A DNA stretch of 64,000 nucleotides from an uncultured Bacilli bacterium (GCA_934167665.1 CAKPLN010000005.1:33414-97413), one strand, 5' to 3'; shown: positions 3,431 to 38,989, counted from the first letter of the stretch. Program-made: numbers and translations. The notes: generated by a model from the letters alone, not told the origin.

Positions 3431-3439
3431 CCTCCTAAA

Positions 3440-3620: not shown

Positions 3621-3690
3621 TTTTTATAAGTTTTAAAATACAACAAAATTTTATCAAAAGAACTAAAACATAAAAACTCAAATAAATCAA

Positions 3691-4440: not shown

Positions 4441-4585
4441 TTCTTCTTAATTTCTTGTAATAAATTATAATATTTAATATTACCAGTCTTTTTAAATAAA
4501 TCCCATAATAAATCAACCATTAATATCACCTCTATTAATATAGTGATAATTTAGTAAACATATTATGCAAATATTTAAAAATTAA

Positions 4586-10293: not shown

Positions 10294-10464
10294 CTATTTT
10301 AAAGGACATAAACTATCATCTACAATTCTTCTTATAGCTGAGCCAGTACTTTTACCAGCGTCATATAAAATTTTAATCAAATTAACCATACTTGATAATA
10401 TAGTTCCTGTTATAGTAGTACCACCATACACATTTTTTAAATCATCATCTTCTATATTTCTCAA
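10294..10464 (-). CDS. double-glycine-leader bacteriocin-like peptide B (56 aa, TTG start)
   Basis: Not in the ORF track. Translation is (M)RNIEDDDLKNVYGG|TTITGTILSSMVNLIKILYDAGKSTGSAIRRIVDDSLCPLK. The leader has hydrophobics at -4, -7 and -12 and acidic residues at -8 to -11. GGAGGTG lies 8 nt upstream. The TTG start overlaps the stop of peptide A (TTGA). Confidence 0.5.
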   Translation of the reverse strand: MRNIEDDDLKNVYGGTTITGTILSSMVNLIKILYDAGKSTGSAIRRIVDDSLCPLK

Positions 10465-10598
10465 CCATTACACCTCCCTGGATTAGTAAAACCTTCTAAT
10501 ACTCCGGATAAAAAAACAACTATCGCTGAAACCGCAATACCAGTCCATACTGATCCACCAGTAATTACCTTCAATTCACTATTATCTAAACTTCTCAC
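10461..10598 (-). CDS. double-glycine-leader bacteriocin-like peptide A (45 aa, GTG start)
   Basis: Not in the ORF track. Translation is (M)RSLDNSELKVITGG|SVWTGIAVSAIVVFLSGVLEGFTNPGRCNG. The leader fits the LSxxELxxIxGG consensus closely. A GGAAGGAG RBS lies 5 nt upstream. The GTG overlaps the stop of the upstream 140-aa gene (GTGA). Confidence 0.6.
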   Translation of the reverse strand: MRSLDNSELKVITGGSVWTGIAVSAIVVFLSGVLEGFTNPGRCNG

Positions 10599-11017
10599 AA
10601 AATCTCCTTCCATACTAATTTAAAAATTTCAATAAAACCAATCTTTCTATCTAAAAAAACTAAATCAACAACATCATTTTCCTTCATCTTCTTCGTAGGA
10701 AAACTAATATAAACCAAATTATAAACCGTATTATTCCTCTTTATAGCACCCAACATTACCTCATTTATAGAATACTCATATCTAACATCATCAACATAAA
10801 GTATAGAATTTTTATATAAAATTTGAAGTTCACTATCAGAAACAACTGCCTCTACTAAAGAGTCCTTAGCTACAACTCCAGTAATTAAAAAATAACTATT
10901 AATCTTATAAAGAAAAGCCATAATAACACTAAAAAGTACCAATATTAAAAATAGTCCAACAACTATAAAAAGTCCTAACTTCTTTTCATAATTTCTTAAT
11001 CTCACTAATTTTACCAT
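10595..11017 (-). CDS. small membrane-anchored accessory protein of the bacteriocin operon (140 aa)
   Basis: N-terminal TM helix. It overlaps the ABC gene end and the peptide A start, so translational coupling is likely. Confidence 0.45.
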   Translation of the reverse strand: MVKLVRLRNYEKKLGLFIVVGLFLILVLFSVIMAFLYKINSYFLITGVVAKDSLVEAVVSDSELQILYKNSILYVDDVRYEYSINEVMLGAIKRNNTVYNLVYISFPTKKMKENDVVDLVFLDRKIGFIEIFKLVWKEIL

Positions 11018-13064: not shown

Positions 13065-13121
13065 AAGAGCCTTATTTCTTCCACCTCCTACTTTATTATT
13101 CTAAAAAACTGTTACTTTCCC

Positions 13122-13300
13122 AGAACAAAAGACAAATTTTTAATTTGTCGCTTTGGTCGTCACCGATCAAAATTCCTACTTCACTGATAAAGTACCCTTT
13201 ATTCTCCATAGGCTTAAATTCCGATAGTCGCTACCGTACTCATTTTATTTTATTACTATCTATTCTTAAACTAACTTTCTTTGATAATGCATTCTTAATC
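13122..13300 (-). ncRNA. putative TnpB omega-RNA (reRNA) scaffold: tnpB 3' end plus right end
   Basis: Inferred from known TnpB biology. The roughly 145-bp right-end segment is almost identical in the copy at 58112-58255, which fits selection on an RNA scaffold. A guide would come from the flank just below 13122. Confidence 0.35.
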
Positions 13301-14426
13301 CTTCAAACATAATATTTATACTAGCATTTATATCTCGATCATTTTCGCATCCACACTTACTACATATCCATTCTCTAACATTTAAATTATCTGTCTCTTT
13401 CGTTGTGTTGTCACAATGACTACATTTCTTACTGCTTGGAAAATATGTATCTACTTGATAATAATATTTTCCTATTAGACTACACTTCCATTTGAGCTGC
13501 TGACATATCCTATTGAAACTGGCATCTAAAATATTTTTGGCTAGATTATGCTTATGTGTCATCTCTTGTATATTTAACTTTTCACTAACTATAATATCAT
13601 GTTCTTTAACGAGTCTATTTACAATATTAATTATATTATGTTTTCTACTATTTTTAATTTTACTATGAATTCTAGCGATTTTTTCTTTTGTCTTATAATA
13701 ATTATTACTACTCTTTATTTGCCTTGCTAGTTTTTTCTGTAATTTTTTTAATCTCTTTTCTCTTTTTAAAATTTCTTTTGGATTAGCATATTTTTCCCCA
13801 TCACTTGTCACAACTAAATCTTTTATTCCTAAGTCTATTCCAACTATATTTTGGGGAATAACGTTACTACTAGGTACAACAAACTCTTTTTCTTCAACTA
13901 CTACACTCACATAATACTTATTAGTTGTTTCTTTCTCAATAGTAGCATTAATAATCCTCCCACTTATTTTTTTTAAATTTCTATAACCTCTTATATCAAC
14001 TAGCCCAATTTTAGGTAATTTGATTTTTCTATTTACTAAATCTAATTCTATATTACTGTATTCACTATTTTTATATGTACTTTTAATGCATGGAGTTCTA
14101 TAGCTTTGCTTATTAAATTTACTCTTAAATTGAGGATAATTACCACGTTTTGAATAATAGTTTTTAAAGGCGTCTTCTAAATTAAAAACAGTACACCTTA
14201 AACTACAAGAATCTACTTCTTTTAAAAATGGATAATCATTGTATAAGTTTTTTATTTCTCCACACATGTCAAAAGCCTTTATAAGACCATTCTTTATACA
14301 CTTGTCTAGAAAATAGTTATAAATAAATCTAACACAACCAAAAGTTTTAGTTAAGAGCTGTTTTTGATAACTATTAGGATACAGTCTAAACTTATAGGCT
14401 TTATACATGCAATACACCTCCATCAT
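13266..14426 (-). CDS. tnpB: RNA-guided endonuclease TnpB (IS605 OrfB family transposase accessory protein)
   Basis: 386 aa. RuvC-I GIDLGIKDLVVTSDG, RuvC-II IIVSEKLNIQEM, a zinc finger CSHCDN...CSKCGC and RuvC-III NDRDINASINI. Confidence 0.9.
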   Translation of the reverse strand: MMEVYCMYKAYKFRLYPNSYQKQLLTKTFGCVRFIYNYFLDKCIKNGLIKAFDMCGEIKNLYNDYPFLKEVDSCSLRCTVFNLEDAFKNYYSKRGNYPQFKSKFNKQSYRTPCIKSTYKNSEYSNIELDLVNRKIKLPKIGLVDIRGYRNLKKISGRIINATIEKETTNKYYVSVVVEEKEFVVPSSNVIPQNIVGIDLGIKDLVVTSDGEKYANPKEILKREKRLKKLQKKLARQIKSSNNYYKTKEKIARIHSKIKNSRKHNIINIVNRLVKEHDIIVSEKLNIQEMTHKHNLAKNILDASFNRICQQLKWKCSLIGKYYYQVDTYFPSSKKCSHCDNTTKETDNLNVREWICSKCGCENDRDINASINIMFEGLRMHYQRKLV

Positions 14427-14743
14427 CTTGACTTACTATAATAAATTACAAACATATGTTTGTTAATATTGATGTTACTATTTAATAAGAAAATTTCTTA
14501 TAAGTTAAAAATATCACAACTTGGATCCGCCCCAGGGGTTATAATTGGCGAACATCTTGGATTTTTAAATTTTATTAAAAAGAAAAGTACTCTTAAGATG
14601 GAATGTCCATACTGTGGTGGTACTATGTTACCTATTGATTTAAAAAATTAGAGTTTTTAACTTTAATCTTTTTGGTATGGACTTGATTCTATCGAGTCCT
14701 TTTTTTGCTGAATAATAACCTGAACGCACTTTCCTTATATATA

Positions 14744-21393: not shown

Positions 21394-23996
21394 CTAACGT
21401 TTGTTACGGATAATAACTATACCAGAACCGCCAGAAGCGCCACAATTACCATAATAATCTCCACCGCCGCCTCCACCAGTGTTAGCTGTACCGCTTGCAG
21501 GGCCAGAACGACAGTAGCCACAATTATCGGATGTTCCACCTTCACCAGCTGAGCATCCTCGGCCTCCGCCACCGTTGCCACCAGAGCCGCCGCCCCAGCC
21601 GCCTCCGCCGCCTCCGCCGCCGTAGAATTTACTTCCAGAACCAAATTCACGTACACCAGAGCCACCAGAGCCACCACCATCAGGACTACGGCTTCCACCT
21701 CTTCCTGTACCAGCACCACCTGCACCATTACCGTATTGACCGGCATTGCCGCCTGATGCACTCCAACCAAAAGCAGTAGTTGTTCCGCCGTTGTTTCTAG
21801 GAGAGCCACCGTTTCCTATACTAATATAATATGATTGAGAAGTTGAAACATTTGTCGTGAAGGTTTGTGTATAACCGCCACCACCTCCACCTTGGCGACC
21901 ACCTCCGCCGCCTCCAACTAGGAAAACATTAATTCCATCAGAAGCCTTATTTAAATCACCAAAGGTTAAAGTACCACTAGTTAAAAGTCTTATTTTCCAA
22001 TTTCCAGACCAATTACTAGTATTAGATATCCTATTATCATTATCATCCACAATTTCATATCTTCCAGTATAAGAGAACTTAGGTATTGAACCTAGACTGA
22101 CACTAAATCTTCCTGAATTACAACTATTAGTATTTCCAGCAGCATCTTTTACATAACCATACCAAGTAATACCACTAGTTGAACCTTGAGTTGCAGATGA
22201 TGTTCCATTATAACTTGCACTACTACTCGTAGTTAATCCATAGGAAGCTACACCAGATAAACTATCACTCGTACTTATACTAACTGTAACATTAGACGTA
22301 TATGCATTACCAGAACCCGAACCAGATAAACTAATCCTACAACTAGGTGCCGTTTTATCTAGCTTAATACTTGTACTAGCTGAACTAGAACAATTGCCTG
22401 CATAATCACATGCCCTAGCATAATAAGTATATGAGCCTTCACTAGAAATAGAAAGATTAACACTTTTATCTATATTAGCAGAAGCTTGTGAACCAGAAAT
22501 AGTAGTCCAACTTGAGTTATTAGTTGAGTATTGGATACTTGCTAATCCAGAAGTCTTATCATTTGATCTTACCGATATATTATAGTTAGAATTGAACCAT
22601 TTATTGTTATTAGTATTTGTAATTGTAGGAGTACTTGGAACGTCCTTATCAATCTTTACTACTGTCTGATTTGAAGCAGAACAATTACCTGCATAATCAC
22701 AAGCTCTAAAATAATAAGAATAAGCACCAGCATTAGAAGCTGTAACACTAGATGTCTTAGAAGTGTTAGCAGAAGCTTGTGAACCAGAGATTGTAGACCA
22801 ATTTTTACTATCTGTTGAATATTGAATACTAGCTAAACCAGACAAATTATCTTTTGAAGTAGCAGTAATCTGATAATTTTTATTAACCCATTTATTGCTA
22901 TTTGGATTACTAACAGTTGGAGCACTTGGTAAAGTCTTATCAATCATGATAGTATTTTTAGCCGGCTCTGAACAATTATCAGCATAGTCACATGCCCTTA
23001 TCTCAACTAACTCATTTCGTTCGGCCGTAAACGGCGTCGTAATAAATGAATTACCAGCCGAGTTATTATATTTAACCCACTTATTAGCACTATTTGGATA
23101 ACGATATTCATAAAACATTACACCAGAATGTTCATCATTAGATGACACTCCAATTACATATTTATTAGTATTAACATAGCTAGCATTAGCCCATACTCCA
23201 TTGTAACTATTAGTTAAAACTGGCGTTACAGGATTAGTATTATCAAATTTTAACTTATCATCTGACCAGACATCACTAGCAAAACGGCCACGAACATCAA
23301 TTACATCATCACCATCTACAAAGAAATAGTATTCGCCATTTAATCCACTTTCAGTAATTGTATATGTTAATTCTTTCTCGCCATTGTCATTTCTAAAATT
23401 ATATTCTTTAAAATTAGTTGGTTCCTGATTCCTTACAGAACTCCATCCATAACGAATGCTTGTATTTGCATTAAGCCCTTCTTGAGCAGTAATTTTAAAT
23501 GTTATGTTCTTAGACTTAGACCAATTATTATTACCACCTACATCTTTAACAGTAACCTTAATAGTCGGCAAAGCAGAAACCGTATCATTACACCTTGAAG
23601 CTGTTTGATTATAAACAACATTATCATCTTTTGTACAGTATAAAGCTATCTCATACTTATACTTACCACCATCCCTTACAACATGAACATATGACTTATT
23701 ATCATCACACACTACGCCATCAGTAATATAATTTTTAATTAATGACTTAGAGCGCAAATCTCCATATGATATGTCATAACAGCCATCACCCGTAATACCA
23801 AATAAATCATTGGAATATGAATCAATATATAGCTTACCAGCATCTTCCATTCTATCAGCATAAGTTTCAAACTTTTTATTACGATTTCTAGCCTGTAACT
23901 GTTGAACACCTGGAAGAGCCAACACAGTTATAATTCCAATTATTGTAATAACAACTAAAAGTTCTACTAAAGTAAATCCCTTTTTCTTATTCTTCA
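21394..23996 (-). CDS. giant pilin-like protein with type IV prepilin N-terminus, three tandem RACDYAGNCS modules and a Gly-rich C-terminal tail
   Basis: The probable start is MKNKKKG|FTLVELLVVITIIGIITVLA (class III signal with Glu at +5). There are about 95-aa repeats. The C-terminal roughly 190 aa is Gly/Ser/Asn-rich (GGGGGGRQGGGGGG...GGGGGGGGWGGGSGG) and encoded by a GC-rich stretch. Confidence 0.6.
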
Positions 23997-24071
23997 TATA
24001 ATCCCTATATCTCCTATCATTTCTAACTATCATCTTTATCAATATCAACTGCTACATCATCATTTACCATA

Positions 24072-24725
24072 TCATTCAGGATTAATTATAAGAGAAGTTG
24101 CATAACGTTTATTATTAATTTCTTTAAATTTAAATTCAAACTTCACAGTTATATTTTTATCAACTAACACTCTAGAAGCATTACCAGTTATTGTGTTTCC
24201 TGAAACAGTCAAAGAATCAAATTCAACATCACTTTTTGGTAAAACATATGGTATAAATAAAATATAGCAACTATTAGAGTCCAAATCAGAACATTTCAAA
24301 TCATCAGTAAGTGCCTCATAAGTAAATTCCTCCTTAGAAGTCAACTTAGAAAAACTATAACCATTATTTAAAGATTTAGTTGCACTATCACCTAAGTTAT
24401 TTCTAACAAAATTAACATAATCTCCATACTTAGCAAAATAATATCTATCACCATCAACACTAATATATCTATCAGTAAAATCATAATTACTATAAAAATA
24501 TGTATCAAAATATGGATAATTAGGATCTAATAAATTTTGAGCCCCAGGAGAAGTCTCAGATAGTACTATTGAAAATAGCTTATCAACTTTAAAATCAGTT
24601 AAAACCTTTTGTGGATCAATACTTTTAGATTTCTCATAATCACAAAATGCATATAACAAACAAGAACCAATCAATAAAGCAGCAGAAATATAAACTATCA
24701 TTGCTTTTTTATTATTTTTCTTCAT
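24072..24725 (-). CDS. hypothetical N-terminally anchored extracytoplasmic protein (217 aa)
   Basis: Signal/TM MKKNNKKAMIVYISAALLIGSCLLYAF. Lies 75 bp upstream of the 884-aa pilin-like gene, probably in the same operon. Confidence 0.45.
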   Translation of the reverse strand: MKKNNKKAMIVYISAALLIGSCLLYAFCDYEKSKSIDPQKVLTDFKVDKLFSIVLSETSPGAQNLLDPNYPYFDTYFYSNYDFTDRYISVDGDRYYFAKYGDYVNFVRNNLGDSATKSLNNGYSFSKLTSKEEFTYEALTDDLKCSDLDSNSCYILFIPYVLPKSDVEFDSLTVSGNTITGNASRVLVDKNITVKFEFKFKEINNKRYATSLIINPE

Positions 24726-25001
24726 AATTTTCCTCCCAAAATAGTAACAAAATCACAATAAATAAAAATTTTATATGTAAGCAAAAAAAACTTCAACAAC
24801 TCTTCCTTATCATTACTACCATAATTAATATATTAACACAAAAACACAATAAAATATATACAATTTTAAATGTATATTGATTCCTTGTTTAAAAATAAAG
24901 AAATATCAATTAAAAATTCTAAATACACATCTTAAAAAACAACAATTACACGGACATGAAGTGATTAAAAAATTAAAATTTAAAAATAAAATTCATCTTT
25001 A

Positions 25002-25400
25002 TATAAAAATAAAAAACCACTAGTTCAACTAGTGGTTTTTAAGTAACCCTATAAAGGTATGTTAATGGCAAACTCCACATGGAGTTTTTTAGATCGGCCA
25101 ACTGCCTTTTACACCTACCCCCTTAAAAGGGTCTTGATATTCTTTTATATTTCTTTCATCAGATATTTTATCTTCAATTTCTTGATTTTTTATATAATTT
25201 TTTATTGTTTGCTTATTTAGCCCACAGTACTAACATAATATCCTTTTGCCCAAAAAGCTCTTTGACCATATTAATATTTCAAATTTGAATGATTATCAAA
25301 TATTATTGATGCACTCTTATCTTTTAGGAATCCCATAAATTGTGATATACTCAACAGTCAAACATAATAAAATAGAGAATGAATTCTCATTCTCTATTTT
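25002..25400 (-). mobile_element. internally deleted IS200-like element (MITE-like) with terminal hairpins
   Basis: Palindromes at 25002-25031, 25061-25080 and 25369-25400 flank tnpA fragments. Confidence 0.45.
25092..25358 (-). pseudogene. IS200/IS605-family tnpA (Y1 transposase) relic, frameshifted and internally deleted
   Basis: Minus-strand fragments translate to LSISQFMGFLKDKSAS, GYYVSTVG and KQTIKNYIKNQEIEDK...EYQDPFKG, which are hallmark IS200 TnpA segments. Confidence 0.5.
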
Positions 25401-26079
25401 ATTCAACTGCATTAATAATGACTTTACTAGAATCGAACTTACCAACATCACCAATATCAAGATCATAAGTCAACTCTTCTTTAGTAGCATCATCAATTGT
25501 AAAATACTTTGTAGCAACAGCTTTATTATTATCATAAAAAACAATATAAGCATATAAATACTTTAATGATACACCTGAATTATTTATTACTTTTACTGTA
25601 TATATATCACTATTTTGACTAGTCTCAAAATTTATTTTGTCCTTAACTAAAGAAACAAAAGATTCATTAGCATCAGTCGCCTTAACTTCAACCTTAATAC
25701 TTTTAACTCTATCAAGATCTACATTTACATTACTTATAATTTCATCACCTGAATTAACCATACCCGCCCATTGTCCATTACGAGCAATCTCTTCACCTGA
25801 TTCATCATAAAGAACAGTATCAATATTCAAAGCATTATATTTTTTTTGACCACTAATATATACATTTAAAATACTATTATTACTATAAGGTTCAAGTCGC
25901 ATAGTAAAATCTTTATTAACAAGTTCCACAGTATAATTTCCAATCGTAACAATATTACTAGTATCACTCGTTTTATCATTGTCTTTATTAGCATCCTTAT
26001 TATTTACCATAAAAAAGCCAGCTATACCAATTAAGGTAATTCCAAGTACTACAAGAACTATACTTATTTTTTTAGCCAT
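25399..26079 (-). CDS. hypothetical N-terminally anchored extracytoplasmic protein (226 aa)
   Basis: TM MAKKISIVLVVLGITLIGIAGFFMV. Lies 13 bp downstream of the 616-aa pilin-like gene and is followed by a palindromic terminator. Confidence 0.45.
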   Translation of the reverse strand: MAKKISIVLVVLGITLIGIAGFFMVNNKDANKDNDKTSDTSNIVTIGNYTVELVNKDFTMRLEPYSNNSILNVYISGQKKYNALNIDTVLYDESGEEIARNGQWAGMVNSGDEIISNVNVDLDRVKSIKVEVKATDANESFVSLVKDKINFETSQNSDIYTVKVINNSGVSLKYLYAYIVFYDNNKAVATKYFTIDDATKEELTYDLDIGDVGKFDSSKVIINAVE

Positions 26080-26092
26080 AATATTTTCCTTT

Positions 26093-27865
26093 CTAATATT
26101 TATAACAATACGTATTGTTTAACTTTGTACCACCATTACATACTTTATCGCAACCATAAGAACATGTATTAGAACCACAAGTTCCATAACTACTACAAAC
26201 ACTAGACCAGCTTATAGAAGCACAGTCATGGCCATTGCAAGAGTAACCGCAACCCATAGAAGAAGAGCAATAACCATTACAACTACAAACTCTACTCCAA
26301 CTAACACAACAAGAATATGTATTATCACTTCCATAATAACAACCACTACAATTAGCATCAGAAGTATTGTAAATTTGAATAGAAGAAGAAGCAACATTTC
26401 CAGCATTATCTTTTATACTTACTGTAAAATTACCCTTTTGTAGAGATAACTCTGAAGCAGTAGATCCATTACTCCAAAGATAATATCCACTCGCAACACC
26501 ACTTGTAGAATCAGCATGACTATCAGTATAAATTTTACTAGTATTTGCTAATAATCTAAATGTTGGGGCAACTGTATCAATCTTTATAGGTTGATCAGCA
26601 CAACTTGCCACATTACCAGTTTCATCTTTTACATATCCACGCCAAATTGTAGACTTTGTATCTCCTTGTACAGCACTAGTCGCATTATTAGAATATATAG
26701 GTGTTGTACTCGTTGTAAAGCCATAAGATACTGGACTACCTACTGCTGTTACAACATTTGAAGTGTTATTAGTAACATTAATACTCATAGTAACTTTGGA
26801 CTTATACCAACCATTTTCTCCATCTGGTGTTGGTATACTTCTTACTATTGTACAACTTGGAGCTGTTTTATCAATCTTAATCATACTCTTAACTGGCTCA
26901 GAACAATTACCAGCATAATCACATGCTCTAACTTCAACATATTCACTACGCTCTTTTGAAAAAGCAGAAGTAGTAAATACAGAATCATCCCCTGGTTGTT
27001 TTGAAGAATTTTCCCATTGAGTCCAATTTCTTTCCGACTCATCATTTGAATTTGGATATCTATATTCAAAGTAGGCAATACCAGACACATTATCAACAGA
27101 TTTAATTGTTATTTTATAACTATTATTAGTCCAAGTATTTTCATAAGGATTATTAATTACTGGTGTACTAGGTACAGTTCTATCAATTTTATAATCAACA
27201 GAACAAGTAGTTTTATTACCAAATATATCAGAAATTTCTATTTCTCCACTCTTACCTTCCTCAGTAAATGTTTTTGAATATGTAGGTTGATCACATCTTG
27301 CACTACCATTTGGAAGACAAGCAATCTCAACTAATGATGAATCATTAGAAGTCCAATCAACAAGAGTAGGATTCTGCTCTCCGCAAATTGGCCCATCAGT
27401 ATCATCTGTTCCATCTTCACATGGTGATACACTACCATCATCTCTATAAATTGCACAATTTTCATAATCAACACATTTAATTTGAATTTTATATTTATAT
27501 GTTGCTAAAGTTGCCATAGATTGATCACTTTCCATACAACCATAAACTTTATATTCGCACTCCTTACTGTTGTCAGTAGGATCTGTTAAAGATTCAATAT
27601 ACTTATAACTCTTTAATAAATTATCGCTTCCTTCAATATCAGAATAGCCATTACTACACTTATTCAAAAATTTATTTTCATCAAGTACGTAGTTTCTAGC
27701 CCCATCATAAATACTTTTTTCCATCGTTTCATAAGCCTGCTTTCGACTCCTAGTAATATAACGAGTAACACTTGGAATAGCAACAGCTGTCAAAATGCCT
27801 AAAATGACTACTACAGCTAATACTTCTATTACTGAAAAGCCTTTATTATTACTTTTAAACTCCAT
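26093..27865 (-). CDS. giant pilin-like protein with type IV prepilin N-terminus, one RACDYAGNCS module and a Cys-rich C-terminal tail
   Basis: The probable start is MEFKSNNKG|FSVIEVLAVVVILGIL; the ATG at 27865 is preceded by GGAGTG. Shares EVRACDYAGNCSEPVKSMIKIDKTAPS with the 884-aa protein. The last roughly 85 aa contain more than 20 Cys. Confidence 0.6.
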   Translation of the reverse strand: MEFKSNNKGFSVIEVLAVVVILGILTAVAIPSVTRYITRSRKQAYETMEKSIYDGARNYVLDENKFLNKCSNGYSDIEGSDNLLKSYKYIESLTDPTDNSKECEYKVYGCMESDQSMATLATYKYKIQIKCVDYENCAIYRDDGSVSPCEDGTDDTDGPICGEQNPTLVDWTSNDSSLVEIACLPNGSARCDQPTYSKTFTEEGKSGEIEISDIFGNKTTCSVDYKIDRTVPSTPVINNPYENTWTNNSYKITIKSVDNVSGIAYFEYRYPNSNDESERNWTQWENSSKQPGDDSVFTTSAFSKERSEYVEVRACDYAGNCSEPVKSMIKIDKTAPSCTIVRSIPTPDGENGWYKSKVTMSINVTNNTSNVVTAVGSPVSYGFTTSTTPIYSNNATSAVQGDTKSTIWRGYVKDETGNVASCADQPIKIDTVAPTFRLLANTSKIYTDSHADSTSGVASGYYLWSNGSTASELSLQKGNFTVSIKDNAGNVASSSIQIYNTSDANCSGCYYGSDNTYSCCVSWSRVCSCNGYCSSSMGCGYSCNGHDCASISWSSVCSSYGTCGSNTCSYGCDKVCNGGTKLNNTYCYKY

Positions 27866-27890
27866 AAAATCACTCCATCCTATTACAAGA

Positions 27891-27899
27891 ATTATACCA
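27891..27899 (-). promoter_or_regulatory. extended -10 promoter (TGgTATAAT) for the 616-aa pilin-like operon
   Basis: TGGTATAAT on the minus strand between the ileS terminator and the GGAG RBS. Confidence 0.45.
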
Positions 27900-27910
27900 T
27901 ACCTACAATC

Positions 27911-27937
27911 AAAAAAAAAAGAGTCAAACTCAGACTC
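27911..27937 (-). terminator. ileS rho-independent terminator overlapping the stop codon
   Basis: AGAGUCugaguuuGACUCU followed by U10. Confidence 0.65.
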
Positions 27938-30900
27938 TTTCAATTTTTATACAAGCTTTCTCGTCATTTAATTCACATTCATCAGTTAAACTAATATCTT
28001 TAATTAACTCATCACCAAGTACTTCACCCATTACATAATCTTTATACATAGATAACATCTTTTCAACAGCAGCACTACCATTATAGTATACCTTAATATG
28101 ATCAGTAATTATAAAATCTAAATCTTTTCTTAAACTTTGAACTTTGCGTACAAATTCACGAGCTAATCCTTCTAAAATCAACTCTTCAGTTAATTCTGTA
28201 TCAAGAACAACACAAGTACGATTATTACTACTTGAAGCATAACCTTCTTTTTGCTTTAATGAAATAAGTACCATATCACTAGTTAATGTAAAGTCTTCTC
28301 CATCAAGCTTAACAGTAAGACCTTCTTCATTTATTTTAGCAACCTCATTACTTGTAAGCTTATCTAATATACTTTGTAATGATTTAATCTTTGGACCTAA
28401 AGTTTTACCTAAAACTTTAAAATTAGGTTTTACTATATATTCCAAATACTCTGTCATATCATCTTTAAATACTATATTTTTAACGTTTAACTCTTCTGAA
28501 ATAACAGGAAGTAAATCTCCAATAATCATTTGATCACTCTTAGGTAAAATCAAACTATTAATTGGTTGTCTTACTTTTATATTTACCTCTTCTCTAGCAA
28601 ATCTTCCCAAAGAACAAATGTCTCTAACTAAATCCATTCTCTCTTCTACTGCCTCATTAATTAAATCAGTATTTTCAATAGGAAAATCAGCTAAATGAAC
28701 AGATTCTTCACCAGTTAAATTACGATAAATCTCCTCTGTCATAAATGGTGTTATAGGAGCACATAATTTACATAATGCAACAAGCACTTCATAAGTAGTT
28801 AAGTAAACAGCTTTCTTACTATCAGTTAACTCACTGTCCCAGAACCTACGACGATTACTTCTAATATACCAATTAGATAAATCATCATTTAAGAATGGAA
28901 CAATAAGTCTTGCTGCTTTATTTAAATCGAATTCTTGATATGCTTGATTAACATTTTTAATTAACTTATTTAATTTAGATAATAACCACCTATCAATAAG
29001 TTCCCTTTTCTCTACTGGAATATCATATTCTCTAGGATCAACATTATCAGCATTAGCATACATTTCAAAGAAAGAATAAGAATTCTTTAATGTAGATGTA
29101 AACTTAGAATAAACTTCTTTTACACCTTCTTCACTAAATTTAAGTGGAGTCCATACTGGTGAAACATAACACATATAGAATCTAATTGTATCAGCACCAT
29201 ACTTTTCCATGATTTGAACAGGATCAATAATATTTCCTGTAGACTTACTCATCTTCTTGCCATAAGCATCAAGCATCATATCATTAACAACAACATTTTT
29301 AAAACTGCTTTCTCCAGATATAATAGTTGAAATAACAAGTAATACATAGAACCAACCACGTGTTTGGTCAACTCCTTCAGCTATAAAATCAGCTGGAAAT
29401 TGATCTAAGAATAATTCTTTATTCTCAAAAGGATAATGCCATTGAGCATAAGGCATAGAACCACTATCGAACCAAACATCCATTACATCTTTAACTCTAC
29501 TCATTACTTTACCACAATCAGGACAAGTAATATGTAAATCATCAACATATGGTCTATGTAATTCTATTTTCTTAACATCAATATCTTCAATTATTTTACT
29601 CTGTAATTCTTCAAGTGAACCAATTACTTCCTTACAACCACATTCACAAGTCCAAATTGGCATAGGACATCCCCAATATCTATTACGAGAAATTCCCCAA
29701 TCAACCATATTATCTAACCAGTTAGCAAATCTCTTAGTACCGATAAATTCTGGATACCAATTAACTTTTGAATTAGCTTCAATAATTTTATCTTTTACAG
29801 CAGTAGTTTTTACATACCAAGCAGGTTTTGCATAGTAAATAAGTGGTGATTTACATCTCCAGCAATGAGGATAATCATGAACTAATTTAATCTTTTTAAA
29901 TAATTTATCATTTTCTTTTAAATATTTTATAATTTCAATTTCAAGTTCAGGATCAGTTACAAGACGGCCTTGCCATGGACCAGTAGTATAACAACCATCT
30001 TTTCCAACTGGATTAACAAAAGCAATGCCATTAGCTTTACAAACATTATTATCATCAGCACCATAAGCAGGAGCAATGTGAACAATACCAGTACCATCTT
30101 CAGCTGTAACATAATTATCAGCAACAACTACAAAAGCCTTTCCTTCAACTTCAACAAAAGGCATTAATTGTTCATACTCAGTACCAACTAAATCCTTTCC
30201 TTTATATGTTTCAAGAACTTTAACATCAGCACCTAATACTTTTTCTAATAAGCTTTTAGCCAAAACAAACTTATAGCCTTGTGATTCAACTAAAACATAT
30301 TCAAGTTCTGGATTAACACATAAAGCAACATTAGCCATTAATGTCCAAGGAGTAGTTGTCCAAACCAAGAAGTAAACATCTTCATTCTTCTTCTTAAAAG
30401 GTACAATAACAGTATTTACAGAATCCTGTTGATATCCTTGAGCTACTTCATTAGAAGAAAGTTCAGTACCACATCTTGGACAATATGGTAATACCTTATT
30501 TCCATGATAAATAAGTCCTTTCTTATCCATCTCCTTGATTAACCACCATTCACTTTCAATAAACTCATTACTGCAAGTAACATATGGATGATCACAATCA
30601 ATAAATTGACCCATCATATCAGTAACTTTTTTAACTTCATCAATATTAGTAGCCGTTTCATTATTACATTCACGACAAAAGTTTTCAATACCAAAACCTT
30701 CAATATCAGATTTATTTTTAAAACCTAACTTCTTTTCAACATTTACCTCTATTGGCAAACCATGTGTATCAAGTCCAATCTTTCTAAGAACTCTATACCC
30801 TTGCATAGTTTTATATTTACAAAAAGCATCTTTAATAGTTTTAGCAAAAACATGATGAATTCCTGGCTTAGCATTAGCATAAATTGGTCCATCATAAAAT

Positions 30901-31320: not shown

Positions 31321-33801
31321 TTAGTCCTGAGTATTTTTTATATACGTCTTACTAGAACTATCAAATTTAAGCTTACCATTTAAAAATCTTTTAACCGCCA
31401 AATTATATAGTTTATATTCATGAGGAAGTTGCATTTGATCAATGAAATCTAATGTTTGTCTTTTCTCATCATCAGTTACCTCATGTAGTTTTCCATCAAC
31501 AGAAAGTACCAGCTTCTCTCCCATTACAGATTCTTCAGTATACTTTAATAAATTTCTGTTTTTCAAAATAAACTGAGAAATATCCGCTTTTAGTGGTCTT
31601 CCTCGCATTAAACTTGAAAACTTGCCAAGAGGAACATTAGTTCTTAGTCTATAGTCCAAATAATCAAAAGGTCTTACTTTATCATCTTCCCTAACCCCAT
31701 TGATTATATCCCTATAAATTCCTTCCAAAACTTCATCGTTTACAGCACAACAGCCACGTTTTTGTAAATCCAACTTTTTACTATAAGCTTCCATTAAAGA
31801 AGCATCAGATTGTAACAATTTTTTAGCAGTCATAAATGCATGTACAGGAATACCTCTATTTTGGCAAAACTCATAAATAGTATGAGACTTATTATCGCTT
31901 AAAAAGTTCATAAAAAGATCATAAGCATCATCTACGCGTTTTCTCCGTTTTACACTTAAATCTTCCTGTTCTAAAGTTTGTTTTTCTTTTTCCAATTTAC
32001 TTATAAAGCATGGCAACTTTTTTAAAAAGACTTCATCATCACCCAAAATAAAATCAACATCTTCAATACTAAGCCCCATTCCCATAACTATAGGAAGCAA
32101 ATTTTCACCACTATCATAAGCTTTAAAAAGAATTGCAAACAAATCTAAAGCATTGTCCCTTATAAACTTCGCTTCATAAGAATTCAACAATTTACGAAAA
32201 GTTCTTCGTGAAACAAACTCTTTAACTTTATCTTGTTGAGCATAATCCTTATATCTATAAAGAAGAGCATGTCTTTCACAAAAAGGTATTTTACTAAGTT
32301 CCTCTACAAAATCACTTTGTAATTTTTCTAAAGTTCTCGTCTTAACATCATAAGAATAGTCCCATTGCTTACGACTATAAGTATCAAACCACTCCTTTAG
32401 TCTTAAAAATTGTTTCTTGTCACTATCATCTACTTGAGTTCTCATTATATATTCAAAAGTATATTGTTGTGGAGAAGCAATACTATCAGTTAACAAATGA
32501 AAATATTTTTCAAATATAATTCTATCTCTTCCATAAATAAAACCATCATTAAAAGTAGTTGGTTTGTTTGAAACATATGCTTCCCAAGACTTAGTAGTAG
32601 ACAATTTATTAAATCCAATCAAAACATTATTATTAATTATAATCTCATATAAATTCCTAGTTAAAGTTTTACCCTTTCCTTCACTATTATAAAAATCAAT
32701 AAATTCATCAGGTAAAAAAGCATATCTTTCCCTTCTATACTCAAAGAAAGCTGATCTAACAGAACTGCAAAAATCAGCATATTCATCCTCTAAATTATCC
32801 TTCTCAAATTGTCTGTTTCTATAAGATACTAATAAATTCTCAAATTGCCTAGTACTTAAAACAACACCCTTTTCTTCTGCTGTAACTATAAATTTTTTTA
32901 AATCATCCAATGAAATAAAAACATCATCAAAAGCATCGTAAAAGTCATCTTCCCTAGAATAAGCTCTATAAGTAAATGCCAATAACATATTATTAACCCT
33001 AGATGAATAACATAAACCACTTTTAAGTCTTTTCTCTAATGATTTGAATTCTAAATATTTATTTTTACATTTACCAACTTTAGTATCAATAAAGGAACTC
33101 ATTAATTTTAAATAAGCATTATTAGGTACAAAATCAGCATGTTTACAGAACTCTATTTCACCATTTCTACTCTTATAAAGTACCCTATATAGCGTCTCAG
33201 GAGCAAAGAAAGTAAAATAAGTCAAAAGATCACTTCTAGCTATTTTTAAACGCTTATAATACTCAGAATCTCTATCACCATTAATAAACATTTCATAATT
33301 AATATAATTTAAAAGATTAGTTACCGTTTCTAAATCAGCAGAAAAGTCTGGTGAATTTAATGTCATATCTAACATATCAGACATAGTAGCATTATATAAA
33401 GAATTACATTCCTTAAAACCATTACTACTAAATACTGCTTTCTTATCCTTCGCAAGATGAATCTTCATACACAAATCATAAAACTCATCACTTCTAACTG
33501 GTAGACAATGTAAAAAATAAACAAATACAGGTATATAAAGTAATGGATCAGCATCACTTCTTATATAAGAAGAATATTTCTTAGTAAAAAGTTCAATCAC
33601 ACCATCTAATAATTCGGAAGGAGTAGTAAAAAGTCCATCTCTTCCAAATAAAAGTTTAATCTTTTCAAAGTCATAACTATCAAAAAAGCCCTCATAAGTA
33701 TCAATTTTATTACCCAAAACAACGTTTGAAGCAAAATACTTATTTAATTCTTCAATTTCTTTATTAAACTCCTCAATTAACAAACTTTTAAAACTTCGCA
33801 C
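31321..33801 (-). CDS. large hypothetical soluble protein (826 aa)
   Basis: Intact ORF with no TM helix and no recognisable motif. Lies between divIVA and ileS. Confidence 0.5.
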   Translation of the reverse strand: MRSFKSLLIEEFNKEIEELNKYFASNVVLGNKIDTYEGFFDSYDFEKIKLLFGRDGLFTTPSELLDGVIELFTKKYSSYIRSDADPLLYIPVFVYFLHCLPVRSDEFYDLCMKIHLAKDKKAVFSSNGFKECNSLYNATMSDMLDMTLNSPDFSADLETVTNLLNYINYEMFINGDRDSEYYKRLKIARSDLLTYFTFFAPETLYRVLYKSRNGEIEFCKHADFVPNNAYLKLMSSFIDTKVGKCKNKYLEFKSLEKRLKSGLCYSSRVNNMLLAFTYRAYSREDDFYDAFDDVFISLDDLKKFIVTAEEKGVVLSTRQFENLLVSYRNRQFEKDNLEDEYADFCSSVRSAFFEYRRERYAFLPDEFIDFYNSEGKGKTLTRNLYEIIINNNVLIGFNKLSTTKSWEAYVSNKPTTFNDGFIYGRDRIIFEKYFHLLTDSIASPQQYTFEYIMRTQVDDSDKKQFLRLKEWFDTYSRKQWDYSYDVKTRTLEKLQSDFVEELSKIPFCERHALLYRYKDYAQQDKVKEFVSRRTFRKLLNSYEAKFIRDNALDLFAILFKAYDSGENLLPIVMGMGLSIEDVDFILGDDEVFLKKLPCFISKLEKEKQTLEQEDLSVKRRKRVDDAYDLFMNFLSDNKSHTIYEFCQNRGIPVHAFMTAKKLLQSDASLMEAYSKKLDLQKRGCCAVNDEVLEGIYRDIINGVREDDKVRPFDYLDYRLRTNVPLGKFSSLMRGRPLKADISQFILKNRNLLKYTEESVMGEKLVLSVDGKLHEVTDDEKRQTLDFIDQMQLPHEYKLYNLAVKRFLNGKLKFDSSSKTYIKNTQD

Positions 33802-34862: not shown

Positions 34863-36746
34863 TTACATAACCCCCATATTATTAGGAACATCAGTCTCTA
34901 TAAATCTTCCATTACCACCCATACTGATTCCTTGAGAAACAGCAGCTGGGGCTGGAGAAACATTAGTATTTTGTGCACTAGCTTGCTCATACCAAACCGT
35001 ACTAATATCAACATTATCACTCATTGGTCTAGGATCAGGTAAATCAATATACATAGAAACTGGAATTTTAAAAGCATTACCAAAAGCAATACAGTTACCA
35101 GGCTTCAAATTTTTCAATTGTTGAACTATTTCAATTGAAATATTAGGAACCATATTTTTAATATAGTCTAAATCCTTAGGATGTAAAGTTCTAAGAATAA
35201 CAAAATTAGTACATTGTGAAATACACGTATCAGAAAGCTCACTAGGTCTTTGGGTTATTAAACCTAAAAATATTCCATACTTACGTCCTTCCTTAGTGAT
35301 TCTTTCAAATATATTATAACCAAGTAAATCAACATCTCGATCCTTAATAACATAACGATGCGCTTCTTCGATAATTATATGAAATGCTCTAGAACCTCTA
35401 GGATAAGTTATAGCAGCAACATTAAATAACATTTTAGAAACTATTTTAGTAATAACCTTTGCCATTCGATCATCAACATAATTAATATTAAAATTAATAA
35501 TTTGGCATTTACTACCATCAGATAAACGCATTAAATTTTCAACATAAGTTCTTTTATCAACAAAACCAGAATAAGTAAAATATTCTCTATAATTACTATT
35601 GATTAAAGTATGTAATCTAACACTTAAAATATTAGCATAATCAAATACTTTATTACTCTTTAGTATACCTTCATTAATCATAGCAAAATCCATTGCTAAT
35701 TCTAAATCAGATAACGTATAATATGGATTTAAATCATCAACCCTAATAACATCAGACTCATCAACTATATATCCTCTAATGAATTCTACTACTAATTCCA
35801 TCTCTTGCATTTTACCAGTTTTATCAACAAATAAACATTGTTTAAGCGTTCTAACATATCCAGGTTGAGCAATTTGACTTTCAAGATTTAATTCCGGTGT
35901 ATTAAATTTAGTTAATACCGCTACTACCTGATCTCTAATCTTCGTAGAATCATTACCACTAAGTAAAATATCTTGTAAAGCTCGAGCAATTATATCATTT
36001 TTCTTTCTTACAACTGATGCCGAATTTCCAGTAAGTATAGGTACTAGTTTAAGTGTTTTTTCAATTATTGGTAGCTGTGTAGGATTACTAGCATCAAGCA
36101 ACAAAGCTAAATCATCAACATCAAGTAACCATACTGGAATTCTAAGTAATTCACCCGTAGATGAAGAATCTGTATTAGTAGTAATATATTTATAATTAAG
36201 TTTAGGGTTAATACTATGTAAATTAGAAAAAGCTGAATTATATTCACCATAAGCATCAAAGAAAAAGAAATTAGCATTAACAGGCAGTCTTTTATTTAAA
36301 AATAATTTTTGTAAAATAGAAGCAACAGTACAACTCTTTCCTGAACCACTATTTCCCAAAACAGAAAAATGATTACTAAAAAAATCATTAATATTTACTT
36401 TTATTTTATATCCATCATATATATTACTAGTTCCAAAATTAGTTTCACCAGGTAATAATTCCTGACTACCTAGCATACTACTTAATTCTTGGAGATTTAT
36501 TAGTCTAGGAGATGATTTAAAAGATGGTTTCTTACTAGCACCAGGAACGAAATTACCAGAAACAAATTCCCCAACTATTACAGTAGTCATAACGCTTTGA
36601 TTAACATTAACAACTTCAGCTGCTACTTTTCTATCTACATCATCGAAAACAACATGTAAGCCAACTAAATTAGGTTGTCTATTAATATCTATTCCTAATT
36701 CAATTAAGACCCTATTATCAATGATCTCTAATACTTTTCCTAGCAC
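34863..36746 (-). CDS. HerA/FtsK-superfamily ATPase (DUF87/HerA-like, N-terminal HAS-barrel)
   Basis: GTG start with an AGAGGGTG RBS. Walker A GNSGSGKS, Walker B/DEAH-like HIIIEEAHRY, arginine-finger region EGRKYGIFLGLITQRPSEL, and the N-terminal barrel KVLEIIDNRVLIELG. Confidence 0.65.
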   Translation of the reverse strand: MLGKVLEIIDNRVLIELGIDINRQPNLVGLHVVFDDVDRKVAAEVVNVNQSVMTTVIVGEFVSGNFVPGASKKPSFKSSPRLINLQELSSMLGSQELLPGETNFGTSNIYDGYKIKVNINDFFSNHFSVLGNSGSGKSCTVASILQKLFLNKRLPVNANFFFFDAYGEYNSAFSNLHSINPKLNYKYITTNTDSSSTGELLRIPVWLLDVDDLALLLDASNPTQLPIIEKTLKLVPILTGNSASVVRKKNDIIARALQDILLSGNDSTKIRDQVVAVLTKFNTPELNLESQIAQPGYVRTLKQCLFVDKTGKMQEMELVVEFIRGYIVDESDVIRVDDLNPYYTLSDLELAMDFAMINEGILKSNKVFDYANILSVRLHTLINSNYREYFTYSGFVDKRTYVENLMRLSDGSKCQIINFNINYVDDRMAKVITKIVSKMLFNVAAITYPRGSRAFHIIIEEAHRYVIKDRDVDLLGYNIFERITKEGRKYGIFLGLITQRPSELSDTCISQCTNFVILRTLHPKDLDYIKNMVPNISIEIVQQLKNLKPGNCIAFGNAFKIPVSMYIDLPDPRPMSDNVDISTVWYEQASAQNTNVSPAPAAVSQGISMGGNGRFIETDVPNNMGVM

Positions 36747-36930: not shown

Positions 36931-37401
36931 TTACCAAGCATCTGATTTATTGGCATCCCATTCAGCATCGCCAGCTGCTAAAGCATCGGCTGTCTGCTGT
37001 ATTGTATTAACATATGATTCTCCAGTTTTTTCATCAGTATACCTATAACTATCAGTATCATCCATAATCTTATTATAGGCTTCATATGCAAGATTGCGAG
37101 CGGAATTATCAGTTTCCATTTTATTCATAATATCTTGAATTACACTTGTTGAGTCTTCTAAATAACTATCAATTTCCTCTTCTTTTTTAGACAATATAGA
37201 AATAAAATTTTCGGAAATCTCATTAAACGTTTTGCTCTCACCAACTCTAAAAGACGTATCGGCATAATCTGCCATTTTATTTTTGGAATTACTTATAGCA
37301 GTTGATAAATCGCTAGATAATATACTAAATTGCTTAACAGCCTCTTGCCCTTTGATATGTGCAGTGCTAGGATATTTATATCTTATCCATTCTCTACTCA
37401 T
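36931..37401 (-). CDS. hypothetical helical protein (156 aa)
   Basis: Overlaps the stop of the upstream 488-aa gene by 8 nt, so they form an operon. No TM helix; acidic. Confidence 0.5.
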   Translation of the reverse strand: MSREWIRYKYPSTAHIKGQEAVKQFSILSSDLSTAISNSKNKMADYADTSFRVGESKTFNEISENFISILSKKEEEIDSYLEDSTSVIQDIMNKMETDNSARNLAYEAYNKIMDDTDSYRYTDEKTGESYVNTIQQTADALAAGDAEWDANKSDAW

Positions 37402-38860
37402 CTATATCACTCTCACTTTCATCAAATAAGGATGCTTTGAATCCAACAGTAGATTTTCCAAAAACCTCATTATCATCTTCAATTTTTTTATCATCAGTAG
37501 TATCTTTTTCTTTGATATCTTCATCATCATTTAAATCACTATCAGAATTAATAGTATTATTATCAATGCCTTCTTCCATCTCACTATCTGTCTTCTTTTT
37601 ATCATAAACAATTTTTCCACCAACAGCCATAGATGCAGCGGCTACAATGGCACCACTAATGGCAATACCAGATTTTTTAATGCCATCACTTCCATTAAGC
37701 TTACTATTGGCTGATAAAGACGGAATTAAAAATTTACTATCAGCAGCAGAATCGGAAAGTAATGTATTACTTGGAATTGAATTATCATCGCCAAGTTCTA
37801 ACAATTCATCAGATGGTTCAAGTAAGGATAACATAGCACTACCGCCAACAACACCAGTCTGTCCATTGGCAGTTGGTATAACCATTTCTTCATCATCAGA
37901 TAAATCTTCTTCACTAGAAGAATTGTCTCCCGCATTACCAGAACCTCCACTATCCTCACTAGGTTGTGGAAGTCCGCCGCCTCCACCGCCGCCAAAATCA
38001 CCGCCTCCTCCTCCACCTGAAGGAGCCTTTTTTGTTTTAAGTAATTCATCTAATCCAGTCGAATCACCACCAGAATAGGCTAAAATAGCACCAATTACAT
38101 TATTTATGGTATTTCTGACAACACCAAATTCTGCTTCTATTTCACTCGAAATTTTACCCAATACCACACTGGCTCTTCTATCTATAATAAATTTATCATA
38201 AGGATATTCCAAAGAATCATAGAAATCATTATCATAACTTATAATAGACTTGAATGGTTCAATGAATTCACCTTTAGAACTGATTAAAGCTCTAATGGCA
38301 TCTGAAGTTACATTGGGGTCATAAAATATATAATCATCATTATACTTTAAATTTAAATTTTCATTTAAATTACCAAGATTGAAACCATCAAGAGGAATAT
38401 AAGCATTATCTGTATCTAGAGTTTCATCATCGCTAGTCACTGGATTAGCATCAGCATAATTTTTTAAAACCTGCTCCTTAGATTCATAATCGGTACCTAC
38501 ATCTAAACCACTAGCACTTAAAAGTTCAGCTTCCTTCATATCACCATATGTAGCCGCAAACTCACGTGATGTTTGCTCATATGAACGCTTTGTTTCTTCA
38601 TAAGCAGCAGTTGGATCTGAAATTATTGGTTGAAGTTGTTTTCCATCATCGCCAACTAAATCTTCACAGTGAGCCTCATCATAATACTTCAAAGTTAAAA
38701 TTTGGGCATTTAAATCATTTGAACCAGCCAAACCAGCATCCCAAAGAAGACTATTTAACGCTGGTGCACCATATCTCTCTGTAAATTCCTTGCGAGCAGT
38801 ATCATATATTACTTGCAAAGATTCAGTACTGTCAACTGGTCCTAAACTTTCACTAGCCAT
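37394..38860 (-). CDS. hypothetical acidic, Gly-rich, C-terminally TM-anchored protein (488 aa; start refined)
   Basis: The ATG at 38860 is preceded by GGAGGTGGAttt (MASESLGPVD...). The track's 13-aa N-terminal extension lacks an RBS. Contains GGGGGGDFGGGGGGG, a Ser/Asp/Glu-rich linker, one TM helix (IAISGAIVAAASMAVGG) and an acidic C-tail. Confidence 0.5.
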   Translation of the reverse strand: MASESLGPVDSTESLQVIYDTARKEFTERYGAPALNSLLWDAGLAGSNDLNAQILTLKYYDEAHCEDLVGDDGKQLQPIISDPTAAYEETKRSYEQTSREFAATYGDMKEAELLSASGLDVGTDYESKEQVLKNYADANPVTSDDETLDTDNAYIPLDGFNLGNLNENLNLKYNDDYIFYDPNVTSDAIRALISSKGEFIEPFKSIISYDNDFYDSLEYPYDKFIIDRRASVVLGKISSEIEAEFGVVRNTINNVIGAILAYSGGDSTGLDELLKTKKAPSGGGGGGDFGGGGGGGLPQPSEDSGGSGNAGDNSSSEEDLSDDEEMVIPTANGQTGVVGGSAMLSLLEPSDELLELGDDNSIPSNTLLSDSAADSKFLIPSLSANSKLNGSDGIKKSGIAISGAIVAAASMAVGGKIVYDKKKTDSEMEEGIDNNTINSDSDLNDDEDIKEKDTTDDKKIEDDNEVFGKSTVGFKASLFDESESDIDE

Positions 38861-38989
38861 AAATCCACCTCCAACTACCATTAAAAAAATACCAAACATT
38901 TAATATTAAACACATAAGTATCAATCCAATTATATAATTTAATAATACACCATAATAAAATTAATGGCAATAAAAAGTGTCAAATACAA

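Follow-up and report, generated by a model that had tools for sequence, protein, structure and literature searches.

A pair of large pilin-like proteins with Ig-like rods and contrasting Gly-rich and Cys-rich tips from an uncultured Bacilli bacterium

What is the function of two genes that begin like type IV pilins, run on for 867 and 590 amino acids (aa), and lie in a region without pilus machinery? The genes, here called A and B, are on the minus strand of a 64,000-nucleotide (nt) stretch of DNA from an uncultured Bacilli bacterium (GCA_934167665.1, CAKPLN010000005.1:33414-97413). We refer to this whole stretch as the window, and positions are counted from its first letter. Our analysis suggests, with a probability of roughly 0.6, that A and B are modular type IV pilins, which machinery encoded elsewhere would load into a filament at low abundance or at its tip. 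This answer is drawn from sequence comparison and structure modelling. The two genes are delimited as follows.

21394..23997, stop included, minus strand: pilin-like protein A, 867 aa (open reading frame (ORF), ribosome-binding site, N_methyl 34.5 bits)
26093..27865, stop included, minus strand: pilin-like protein B, 590 aa (ORF, context of terminator, promoter and ribosome-binding site, N_methyl 26.1 bits)
27917..27941, minus strand: terminator-like hairpin of ileS, separating B from the upstream gene

A previous sequence-only reading of this DNA had described two large ORFs of 884 and 616 aa. Both exist on the minus strand where it had placed them, but these lengths are those of maximal ORFs counted from TTG. 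The start of A is an internal ATG at 23997 with AGGAG 12 nt upstream, and that of B is an internal ATG preceded by the ileS hairpin (27941-27917), a TATAAT box and a GGAG-type ribosome-binding site. A contig from an ENA metagenome assembly (L084), 99% identical over the A/B region, carries gene calls of 867 aa for A and 590 aa for B as well.

Both proteins begin with a class III prepilin signal, as that reading had claimed. The leader cleavage sites are MKNKKKG↓FTLVE in A (7-aa leader) and MEFKSNNKG↓FSVIE in B (9-aa leader), each with Glu at +5. The Pfam model N_methyl (PF07963) scored 34.5 bits for A and 26.1 bits for B against a cut-off of 21.2, and NCBIfam TIGR02532 scored 29.6 and 23.8 bits against a cut-off of 16.3. 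Solved type IV pilins from the PDB align with the first ~60 residues of A and B, and the match in B spans residues 5-75. In a six-frame motif scan of the window, a prepilin cleavage motif stood at the N-terminus of an ORF in A and B only. Moreover, A and B are paralogues (BLASTP E = 3e-39). The signals open the following pilin modules.

23578..23997, minus strand: A leader (MKNKKKG↓) and pilin module, residues ~1-140 (AlphaFold, 43% identity to stand-alone pilins)
27386..27865, minus strand: B leader (MEFKSNNKG↓) and pilin module, residues ~1-160 (TIGR02532, PF07963, PDB matches, alignment with the A module)

A search with residues 1-145 of A reached pilins of classical size, P0152 (141 aa) and P0162 (181 aa). 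Residues 1-129 of A are 43% identical to P0152 over ~125 residues (E ~1e-30), and P0162 is likewise 43% identical. Since this identity spans essentially the whole module, the head is a complete pilin domain and not a mere signal peptide. In the AlphaFold model of A, obtained with a 78-sequence alignment, the head consists of a 57-residue helix (10-66) followed by strands at 72-77, 95-97, 103-109, 112-123 and 126-131, with block-mean predicted local distance difference test (pLDDT) values of 75-93. The predicted secondary structure thus has the topology of a type IV pilin, namely a long alpha1 helix and a small beta-sheet.

Conservation within the family points in the same direction. A word-indexed protein search found at least 143 relatives, and those among the best 120 that were listed are 488-1462 aa long and nearly all carry the N_methyl motif. 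Gly at -1, Phe at +1 and Glu at +5 are present in 76/76 of the family members that possess an N-terminus. Gly+14 is found in 67/78 and Pro+22 in 57/78 relatives, and both are present in 24/24 close relatives and in A and B. In type IV pili, Glu+5, Gly+14 and Pro+22 matter for subunit packing in the filament and not for anchoring, and the helix-breaking Gly+14 and Pro+22 are typical of type IVa pilins and pseudopilins. Hence, conservation of these three residues is the best available argument that A and B polymerise and are not merely anchored. In summary, A and B have the class III signal, the alpha1 helix with beta-sheet (predicted, for A) and the Gly+14 and Pro+22 of type IV pilins. The first view of these proteins as modular pilins gains support from the complete pilin module, homologous to stand-alone small pilins, and from its conserved packing residues.

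The head is followed in both proteins by a rod of immunoglobulin (Ig)-like modules, whose boundaries were set at D.T.P motifs.

22078..23562, minus strand: five Ig-like modules of A, residues 146-255, 256-353, 354-450, 451-548 and 549-640
26354..27385, minus strand: four Ig-like modules of B, residues 161-230, 231-334, 335-432 and 433-504

The motif RACDYAGNCS...IDKT.PS occurs in A modules 256-353, 354-450 and 451-548 and in B module 231-334. These are the three repeats in A and one in B that had been noticed from the sequence, but the divergent modules (146-255 and 549-640 in A; 161-230, 335-432 and 433-504 in B) had been missed. A modules 354-450 and 451-548 are 59% identical to each other. 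Pairwise identities between B modules and A modules range from 25-45%, with 37-45% for the RACDYAGNCS module of B. The NCBIfam OmpL47-type domain NF047446 matched three stretches of A with 89.3 bits (cut-off 40) and B with 30 bits, which is under the 40-bit cut-off; the repeated modules also gave weak matches to Big_13 and DUF7743. Structure prediction and a Foldseek search had been proposed for the repeat module. AlphaFold modelled residues 141-360 of A confidently as beta-sandwiches (block-mean pLDDT 90-98), and Foldseek with the rod of A retrieved the tandem Ig-like adhesin rods GhpA, SiiE and MpIBP and other tandem Ig arrays with E-values of 1e-8 to 1e-11. The rod modules are ordinary Ig-like, OmpL47-type surface-protein domains. 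OmpL47 is a surface-exposed Leptospira protein with weak binding of matrix proteins (PMC2935396).

The distal ends of the two proteins differ, in accordance with the contrasting tails described for them at first.

21397..22077, minus strand: Gly-rich tip of A, residues 641-867 (Pfam Gly_rich_2)
26096..26353, minus strand: Cys-rich tip of B, residues 505-590, with 16 Cys, ending C-x2-G-x9-CYKY

In A, 73 Gly are found in the last 183 aa (40%), and Pfam Gly_rich_2 (PF21722) matches residues 685-864 with 29.4 bits against a cut-off of 24.3, covering profile positions 13-224 of 226. This domain was not found in B by Pfam, and the B tail has no Pfam match. Structure prediction had also been suggested for the tails; for the Gly-rich tip of A, AlphaFold gave pLDDT values of ~30 and no confident model. 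The Gly-rich tail had no tblastn match among 50,697 phage records, a result to which the low-complexity filter may have contributed, and neither tail matched a PDB sequence at E up to 10. A PHROGs search of A and B returned the pilin motif only, besides one weak long-range match to phrog_2295, and literature searches for PF21722 or Gly_rich_2 yielded nothing. In the B tip, 16/16 Cys are kept in an orthologue on contig L097 that is 52% identical. Because all of them are kept at only 52% identity, the B tip is a structured knot, with disulfides or metal as its probable stabilisers. Neither protein has an LPXTG motif (the C-termini are ...GSGIVIIRNKR in A and ...NNTYCYKY in B), and hence sortase anchoring is not used.

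Several observations from this region and from related contigs concern the tips. The ORFs 21417-21809 (minus strand) and 21495-21779 (plus strand) were considered and set aside as by-products of the GGN-rich coding sequence of the Gly-rich region of A. On contig L004, positions 12970-14502 encode a 510-aa protein with N_methyl, Flg_new and Gly_rich_2, which adjoins two small pilins. Since Gly_rich_2 ends this pilin-like protein, the Gly-rich domain is found again at the tip of a pilin with another stalk. This contig has 29% G+C and is labelled Muribaculaceae, a label that looks wrong for such base composition. Two genes after a giant pilin with a Cys-rich tail, contigs L001 (12254-13036) and L093 (7698-8480) encode an exported thioredoxin-like protein with a CSYC (CxxC) motif and a C-terminal membrane helix (Thioredoxin_2 E 1e-3, below cut-off). 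This protein could oxidise tip cysteines, which we regard as a hint and no more.

Tips also vary widely in the family. C-terminal domains in relatives include Gly_rich_2, ALK-type Gly_rich, TSP1 repeats, Flg_new, Laminin_G_3 and ChW, and a pilin bearing the leucine-rich repeat (LRR) domain LRR_5 is encoded near one relative of the giant pilins. Related contigs carry several giant-pilin paralogues each, with many different tips. The relatives are nearly all metagenomic, some from human-gut metagenomes, Hadza samples included, and some from metagenome-assembled genomes labelled 'Bacilli bacterium' or 'bacterium'. Two of them carry a name, 'prepilin-type N-terminal cleavage/methylation domain-containing protein' in one case and 'type II secretion system protein' in the other. 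A paper on TANB77 pilins was found to treat Tad-type pili, which are unrelated to the A/B family.

Small genes for membrane-anchored proteins lie beside both A and B, and each had been proposed as a partner.

25399..26079, minus strand: 226-aa partner of B, with N-terminal membrane helix and two beta-sandwich domains (starts 13 nt after the B stop)
24072..24725, minus strand: 217-aa protein with an N-terminal anchor, an uncertain member, 74 nt upstream of the A start (ORF, adjacency)

Both genes exist, and both products have one hydrophobic helix at the N-terminus. The pairing of the 226-aa gene with B is backed by conservation, but that of the 217-aa gene with A is by adjacency only. A partner gene is found 10-25 nt downstream of a giant pilin in the window (B and the 226-aa gene), in L001 and L093, and twice each in L085 and L086; the products are 150-260 aa long with one N-terminal membrane helix and no Pfam match. 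Among 1.8 billion proteins, the 226-aa protein has 15 representative relatives. One of these, P0208 (37% identity by phmmer, 35% by BLASTP), is encoded directly after the B orthologue of L097. This orthologue shares 52% identity with B over its C-terminal half, and its locus, beside tex-rluD-asnS, occupies another chromosomal site. Thus, the pair of B and the 226-aa gene is conserved across species and moves as a unit. Within this pair, sequence change is faster in the partner (35-37% identity) than in the pilin (52%). The 226-aa protein is a generic two-domain Ig-like protein, and comparison of its family with the partners at other loci, by BLASTP and by hhalign of the 226-aa profile, gave nothing beyond the membrane helix.

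The case of A is different in that no partner gene lies downstream. The 217-aa protein upstream has no Pfam or NCBIfam match, tblastn across the loci examined found it only on the same-species contig L084, and a relative is absent beside L092, the one A-type relative with a readable upstream flank. Its link to A is uncertain.

Pfam scans of 46 substantial window ORFs of at least 100 aa detected no T2SSE, T2SSF or Peptidase_A24 (three further listed ORFs are short and lie nested within larger genes), and so the previous statement that the window lacks PilB, PilC and PilD holds. A related contig (L090) encodes at 2626-5027 a GspF/PilC-family platform protein followed directly by an A24 prepilin peptidase, 5 kb from the 181-aa pilin P0162. 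The platform protein has 535 aa with an unusual N-terminal extension of ~135 aa, and it scores 290 bits with GspF/PilC vs 151 bits with ComGB. This gene pair lies in housekeeping surroundings, between yqfQ and a dnaB/dnaD-like gene, with no adjoining ATPase. In none of the related loci examined does pilus machinery lie within 10 kb of a giant pilin.

Small pilins are dispersed in the same manner. Single small-pilin genes are found in L099 (2098-2496, 10001-10363 and 17526-18263), L036 (7228-7638) and L087 (10001-10426), where their neighbours are housekeeping genes; the sites are after gyrA, between engB and der, before RNase J and after rpsU/sspI. Single, dispersed pilin genes therefore appear to be the norm in related contigs. 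Because pilin genes are scattered in relatives, the missing machinery in the window is uninformative and does not count as evidence against a pilus. The first suggestion that the machinery is encoded elsewhere now describes the expected state, given the PilC and peptidase genes at a separate site in L090 and the scattered pilin genes.

Two Walker-A matches that looked T2SSE-like were rejected as pilus ATPases: that in L036 is FtsK, and that in L092 is the coupling protein of a conjugative type IV secretion system (T4SS). Genes of integrative or conjugative elements adjoin pilin genes in L092 (650-6284) and L087 (1532-8970), including relaxase, T4SS coupling protein, sortase, and integrase or serine recombinase. 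In the examined loci, sortase genes occur only inside these strings of mobile-element genes.

According to the modular-pilin model, A and B would be made with a short class III leader, and the hydrophobic alpha1 helix would insert into the membrane. A prepilin peptidase encoded elsewhere in the genome would trim them after Gly-1, and PilB/PilC-type machinery would then load them through the pilin module into a filament composed mainly of a pilin of ~140 aa. The bulk of A and B would result in low abundance or a position near the tip. A rigid rod of 4-5 Ig-like domains would hold the distal binding module, the Gly-rich domain in A or the 16-Cys knot in B, off the fibre, and the two would be adhesins carried by a pilus, each with its own ligand specificity. 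The 226-aa protein may be a cognate accessory factor of B, and our guess is that it serves as holder or chaperone of the membrane-embedded prepilin or as a co-displayed partner. The analysis shows the signal motif, the homology of the pilin module, the predicted fold, the domain composition, the gene pairing and the PilC and PilD genes of a related contig; we infer cleavage, polymerisation, adhesion and the partner role, and the adhesive role of the grafted modules from domain types. The model is supported by the rod domains, which are of surface-protein type, and by relatives with the adhesive tips TSP1, LRR_5, Flg_new and Laminin_G_3.

Several points weigh against this model. No PilB, PilC, PilD or small pilin is encoded within the 64-kb window, and no PilB-type ATPase was seen in any related locus examined. 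The L090 contig is tied to the host organism only through 43% pilin identity and similar GC, and the pilin fold is read only from predicted secondary-structure topology. Partners of different subfamilies are unrelated, a B-like gene in L095 has no partner, and the role of the 226-aa protein is a guess. In addition, a rod of about five Ig-like domains suits a cell-anchored adhesin that crosses the wall, and a pilus-borne adhesin would need such a rod less.

The last point leads to the strongest alternative, which the first reading had raised as another surface-display route and in which the pilin head is only an anchor in the membrane. In that case, A and B would remain unpolymerised, with the class III signal cleaved or not, the rod would span the wall and the tip would bind ligands at the surface, so that the pilin head would be a general carrier of surface proteins in this lineage. 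The scatter of giant-pilin genes among housekeeping genes far from machinery, the contigs with several paralogues and many different tips, the rod type shared with the cell-anchored giant adhesins SiiE and MpIBP, and the lack of LPXTG and hence of sortase anchoring all agree with it, and a membrane-anchored partner would fit a membrane-resident complex. However, a mere anchor would have no need of a whole globular pilin domain, of an invariant Glu+5 or of conserved Gly+14 and Pro+22, and we know of no bacterial precedent for a full pilin module that serves only as anchor. Moreover, related contigs encode PilC, a prepilin peptidase and small pilins built on this module, which indicates that a filament is probably made. 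We therefore consider pure anchoring unlikely, although it has to be taken seriously.

Variation of the tips on a conserved head and rod would also be expected of polymorphic effectors with immunity-like partners, in which the tip is a delivered toxic or antagonistic module and the downstream membrane protein gives protection. The downstream small proteins are indeed highly divergent and subfamily-specific, and the partner diverges faster than the pilin (35-37% vs 52%). But neither tip has a toxin, peptidase or nuclease domain in searches of Pfam, NCBIfam, PHROGs and PDB sequences, and the tips of relatives are adhesive modules (TSP1, LRR, Flg_new, Laminin_G). The partner is a generic two-domain Ig-like protein, the B-like gene of L095 has none, and A has none downstream. 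Such an effector system is very improbable.

A role of A and B as minor subunits in a pseudopilus of the competence (Com) or type II secretion-like kind has hardly any likelihood: the N-terminal similarity to ComGC/GD/GE and GspG/H models and the NCBI name 'type II secretion system protein' of one relative speak for it, but the Com and Gsp matches span only the N-terminal 25-60 residues and stay far under the NCBIfam equivalog cut-offs (ComGC 25.8 vs 75, ComGE 29.8 vs 49, ComGD 17.3 vs 70 bits), the related platform protein of L090 prefers GspF/PilC to ComGB (290 vs 151 bits), and no part in DNA uptake or secretion is known for large adhesive grafts. Thus sortase substrate, Com pseudopilin and toxin/immunity pair each failed on a defining feature that was tested.

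The genes around A and B place them in a low-GC Gram-positive spore-former related to uncultured gut bacteria. G+C is ~28% across the window, and the GC skew is strongly negative throughout, with each 2-kb bin below zero. All ORFs with a family match are on the minus strand, and the sole plus-strand gene found is tRNA-Lys (59497-59572). The gene content is of housekeeping and sporulation type, with ileS, recO, era, ybeY, yqfD, divIVA, sepF, asnS, tex, ddl and murF, and the window also has a SpoIIIAH-like gene and a GerM-like gene.

Other loci in the window are of interest in their own right. Between the 226-aa and 217-aa genes, at ~25100-25300 (minus strand), lies a frameshifted C-terminal remnant (...FWAKGYYVSTVG / ...TIKNYIKNQEIEDKISDE...EYQDPFKG), which by eye looks like an IS200/IS605 TnpA; a strong hairpin (25040-25012) comes after it. 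An intact TnpB (OrfB_IS605 and Cas12f1-like TNB) is encoded at 13266-14426. At 10294-10613, 10595-11017 and 10986-13064 (all minus strand), two short peptides (50-56 aa), each with a double-glycine leader (...VYGG↓TT... and ...VITGG↓SV...), lie beside a C39-peptidase ATP-binding cassette (ABC) exporter and a 140-aa membrane protein, a group that looks like a class II bacteriocin-type production locus. A HerA/DUF87-type ATPase (34863-36746, minus strand) is preceded by two proteins free of family matches (36931-37401 and 37394-38899, minus strand). The 501-aa protein of this group contains a Gly run and a long acidic tail as well as a hydrophobic stretch at the C-terminus, and the group may be an uncharacterised membrane-associated system beside sepF and divIVA. 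Between ileS and divIVA, an 826-aa protein (31321-33801, minus strand) has no Pfam match and no obvious signal sequence. Finally, a 2549-aa protein (50031-57680, minus strand) has hydrophobic N-terminal stretches and GH94 catalytic, GH94 supersandwich and glucoamylase-type domains; it presumably resembles a cyclic beta-1,2-glucan synthase or a phosphorylase-type giant enzyme.

If A and B are pilus-borne adhesins, they are likely colonisation factors of a not-yet-cultured gut lineage, and the exchange of tips would illustrate how the binding targets of such bacteria are varied. The conserved pair of pilin and partner gives a concrete, testable clue to the pre-assembly handling of very bulky pilins, a subject not treated in the passages of PMC8179133 that were consulted. 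It is also conceivable, though we hold it doubtful, that the pilin head is a lineage-wide general carrier for an adhesin repertoire. Such a carrier would present an Ig-like rod with interchangeable Gly-rich, Cys-knot, TSP1, LRR or Flg_new tips, would be encoded mostly in mobile two-gene cassettes whose other gene specifies a fast-evolving Ig-like partner, anchored in the membrane and required for holding, loading or completing the adhesin, and would replace the sortase/LPXTG display of other Gram-positive bacteria. The partner gene and this possible lineage-wide pilin-based display are the parts of most value for follow-up.

With regard to known systems, modular pilins are an established class. 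Raynaud et al. 2021 (PMC8179133) count >1,200 such proteins in 264 architectures, one of them of 860 aa. The scale of A and B had been put far above that of the modular pilins of Gram-positive bacteria; however, this catalogued protein of 860 aa contradicts it, and the A/B family itself reaches 1,462 aa. As modular pilins are defined in PMC8179133, A belongs to them by its stand-alone-equivalent pilin module with OmpL47-type domains and Gly_rich_2.

The large extracellular Ig arrays provide one point of comparison. SiiE of Salmonella, MpIBP, the grappling-hook protein GhpA and Leptospira OmpL47 resemble A and B in that a tandem Ig-like rod presents a distal binding region. Their export and anchoring use type I secretion, outer-membrane or other routes, and none has a pilin head. 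Gly-rich receptor-binding domains (PF21722, and the ALK/LTK-type PF12810 in relatives such as P0012) likewise place a Gly-run domain at the distal extracellular end, but the A tail is modelled at pLDDT ~30 and has no sequence match to phage tail-fibre tips or PDB entries. It may resemble polyglycine-II folds.

Closer counterparts are found among pilins. In Streptococcus sanguinis, pilB and pilC sit in the pil locus. Their products PilB (vWA) and PilC (lectin) share with A and B the class III signal, the small N-terminal pilin module and the C-terminal graft (PMC8179133; PMC9934059), and both sets are expected to be low-abundance or tip-exposed adhesins of Gram-positive-type hosts, A and B being known here from sequence. 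In contrast to the single globular domain of PilB and PilC, the graft of A and B is a rod of 4-5 Ig-like domains with a Gly- or Cys-rich tip. Moreover, A/B-type genes are dispersed away from any pilus locus, and a gene for a cognate membrane-anchored protein follows many of them.

The large type IVb minor pilins CofB and TcpB of enterotoxigenic Escherichia coli and Vibrio cholerae also consist of a pilin module followed by extra beta-rich domains, and pilins of this type are tip-located and bind a separately encoded partner, CofJ in the case of CofB (PMC8179133). No sequence kinship with them was detected beyond the N-terminal motif, and the leader of A and B is short, as in type IVa. The CofB gene lies inside a pilus operon and the CofB partner is secreted, whereas the partner of B is membrane-anchored. 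Two features of the present family appear to be new, since we found neither described: the combination of an OmpL47-type rod with a Gly-rich or Cys-knot tip, and the recurrent downstream gene for a membrane-anchored partner. As the modular pilin concept is already established, the gain is incremental, and nothing here contradicts current understanding. The A/B family is a new family of the established modular-pilin kind.

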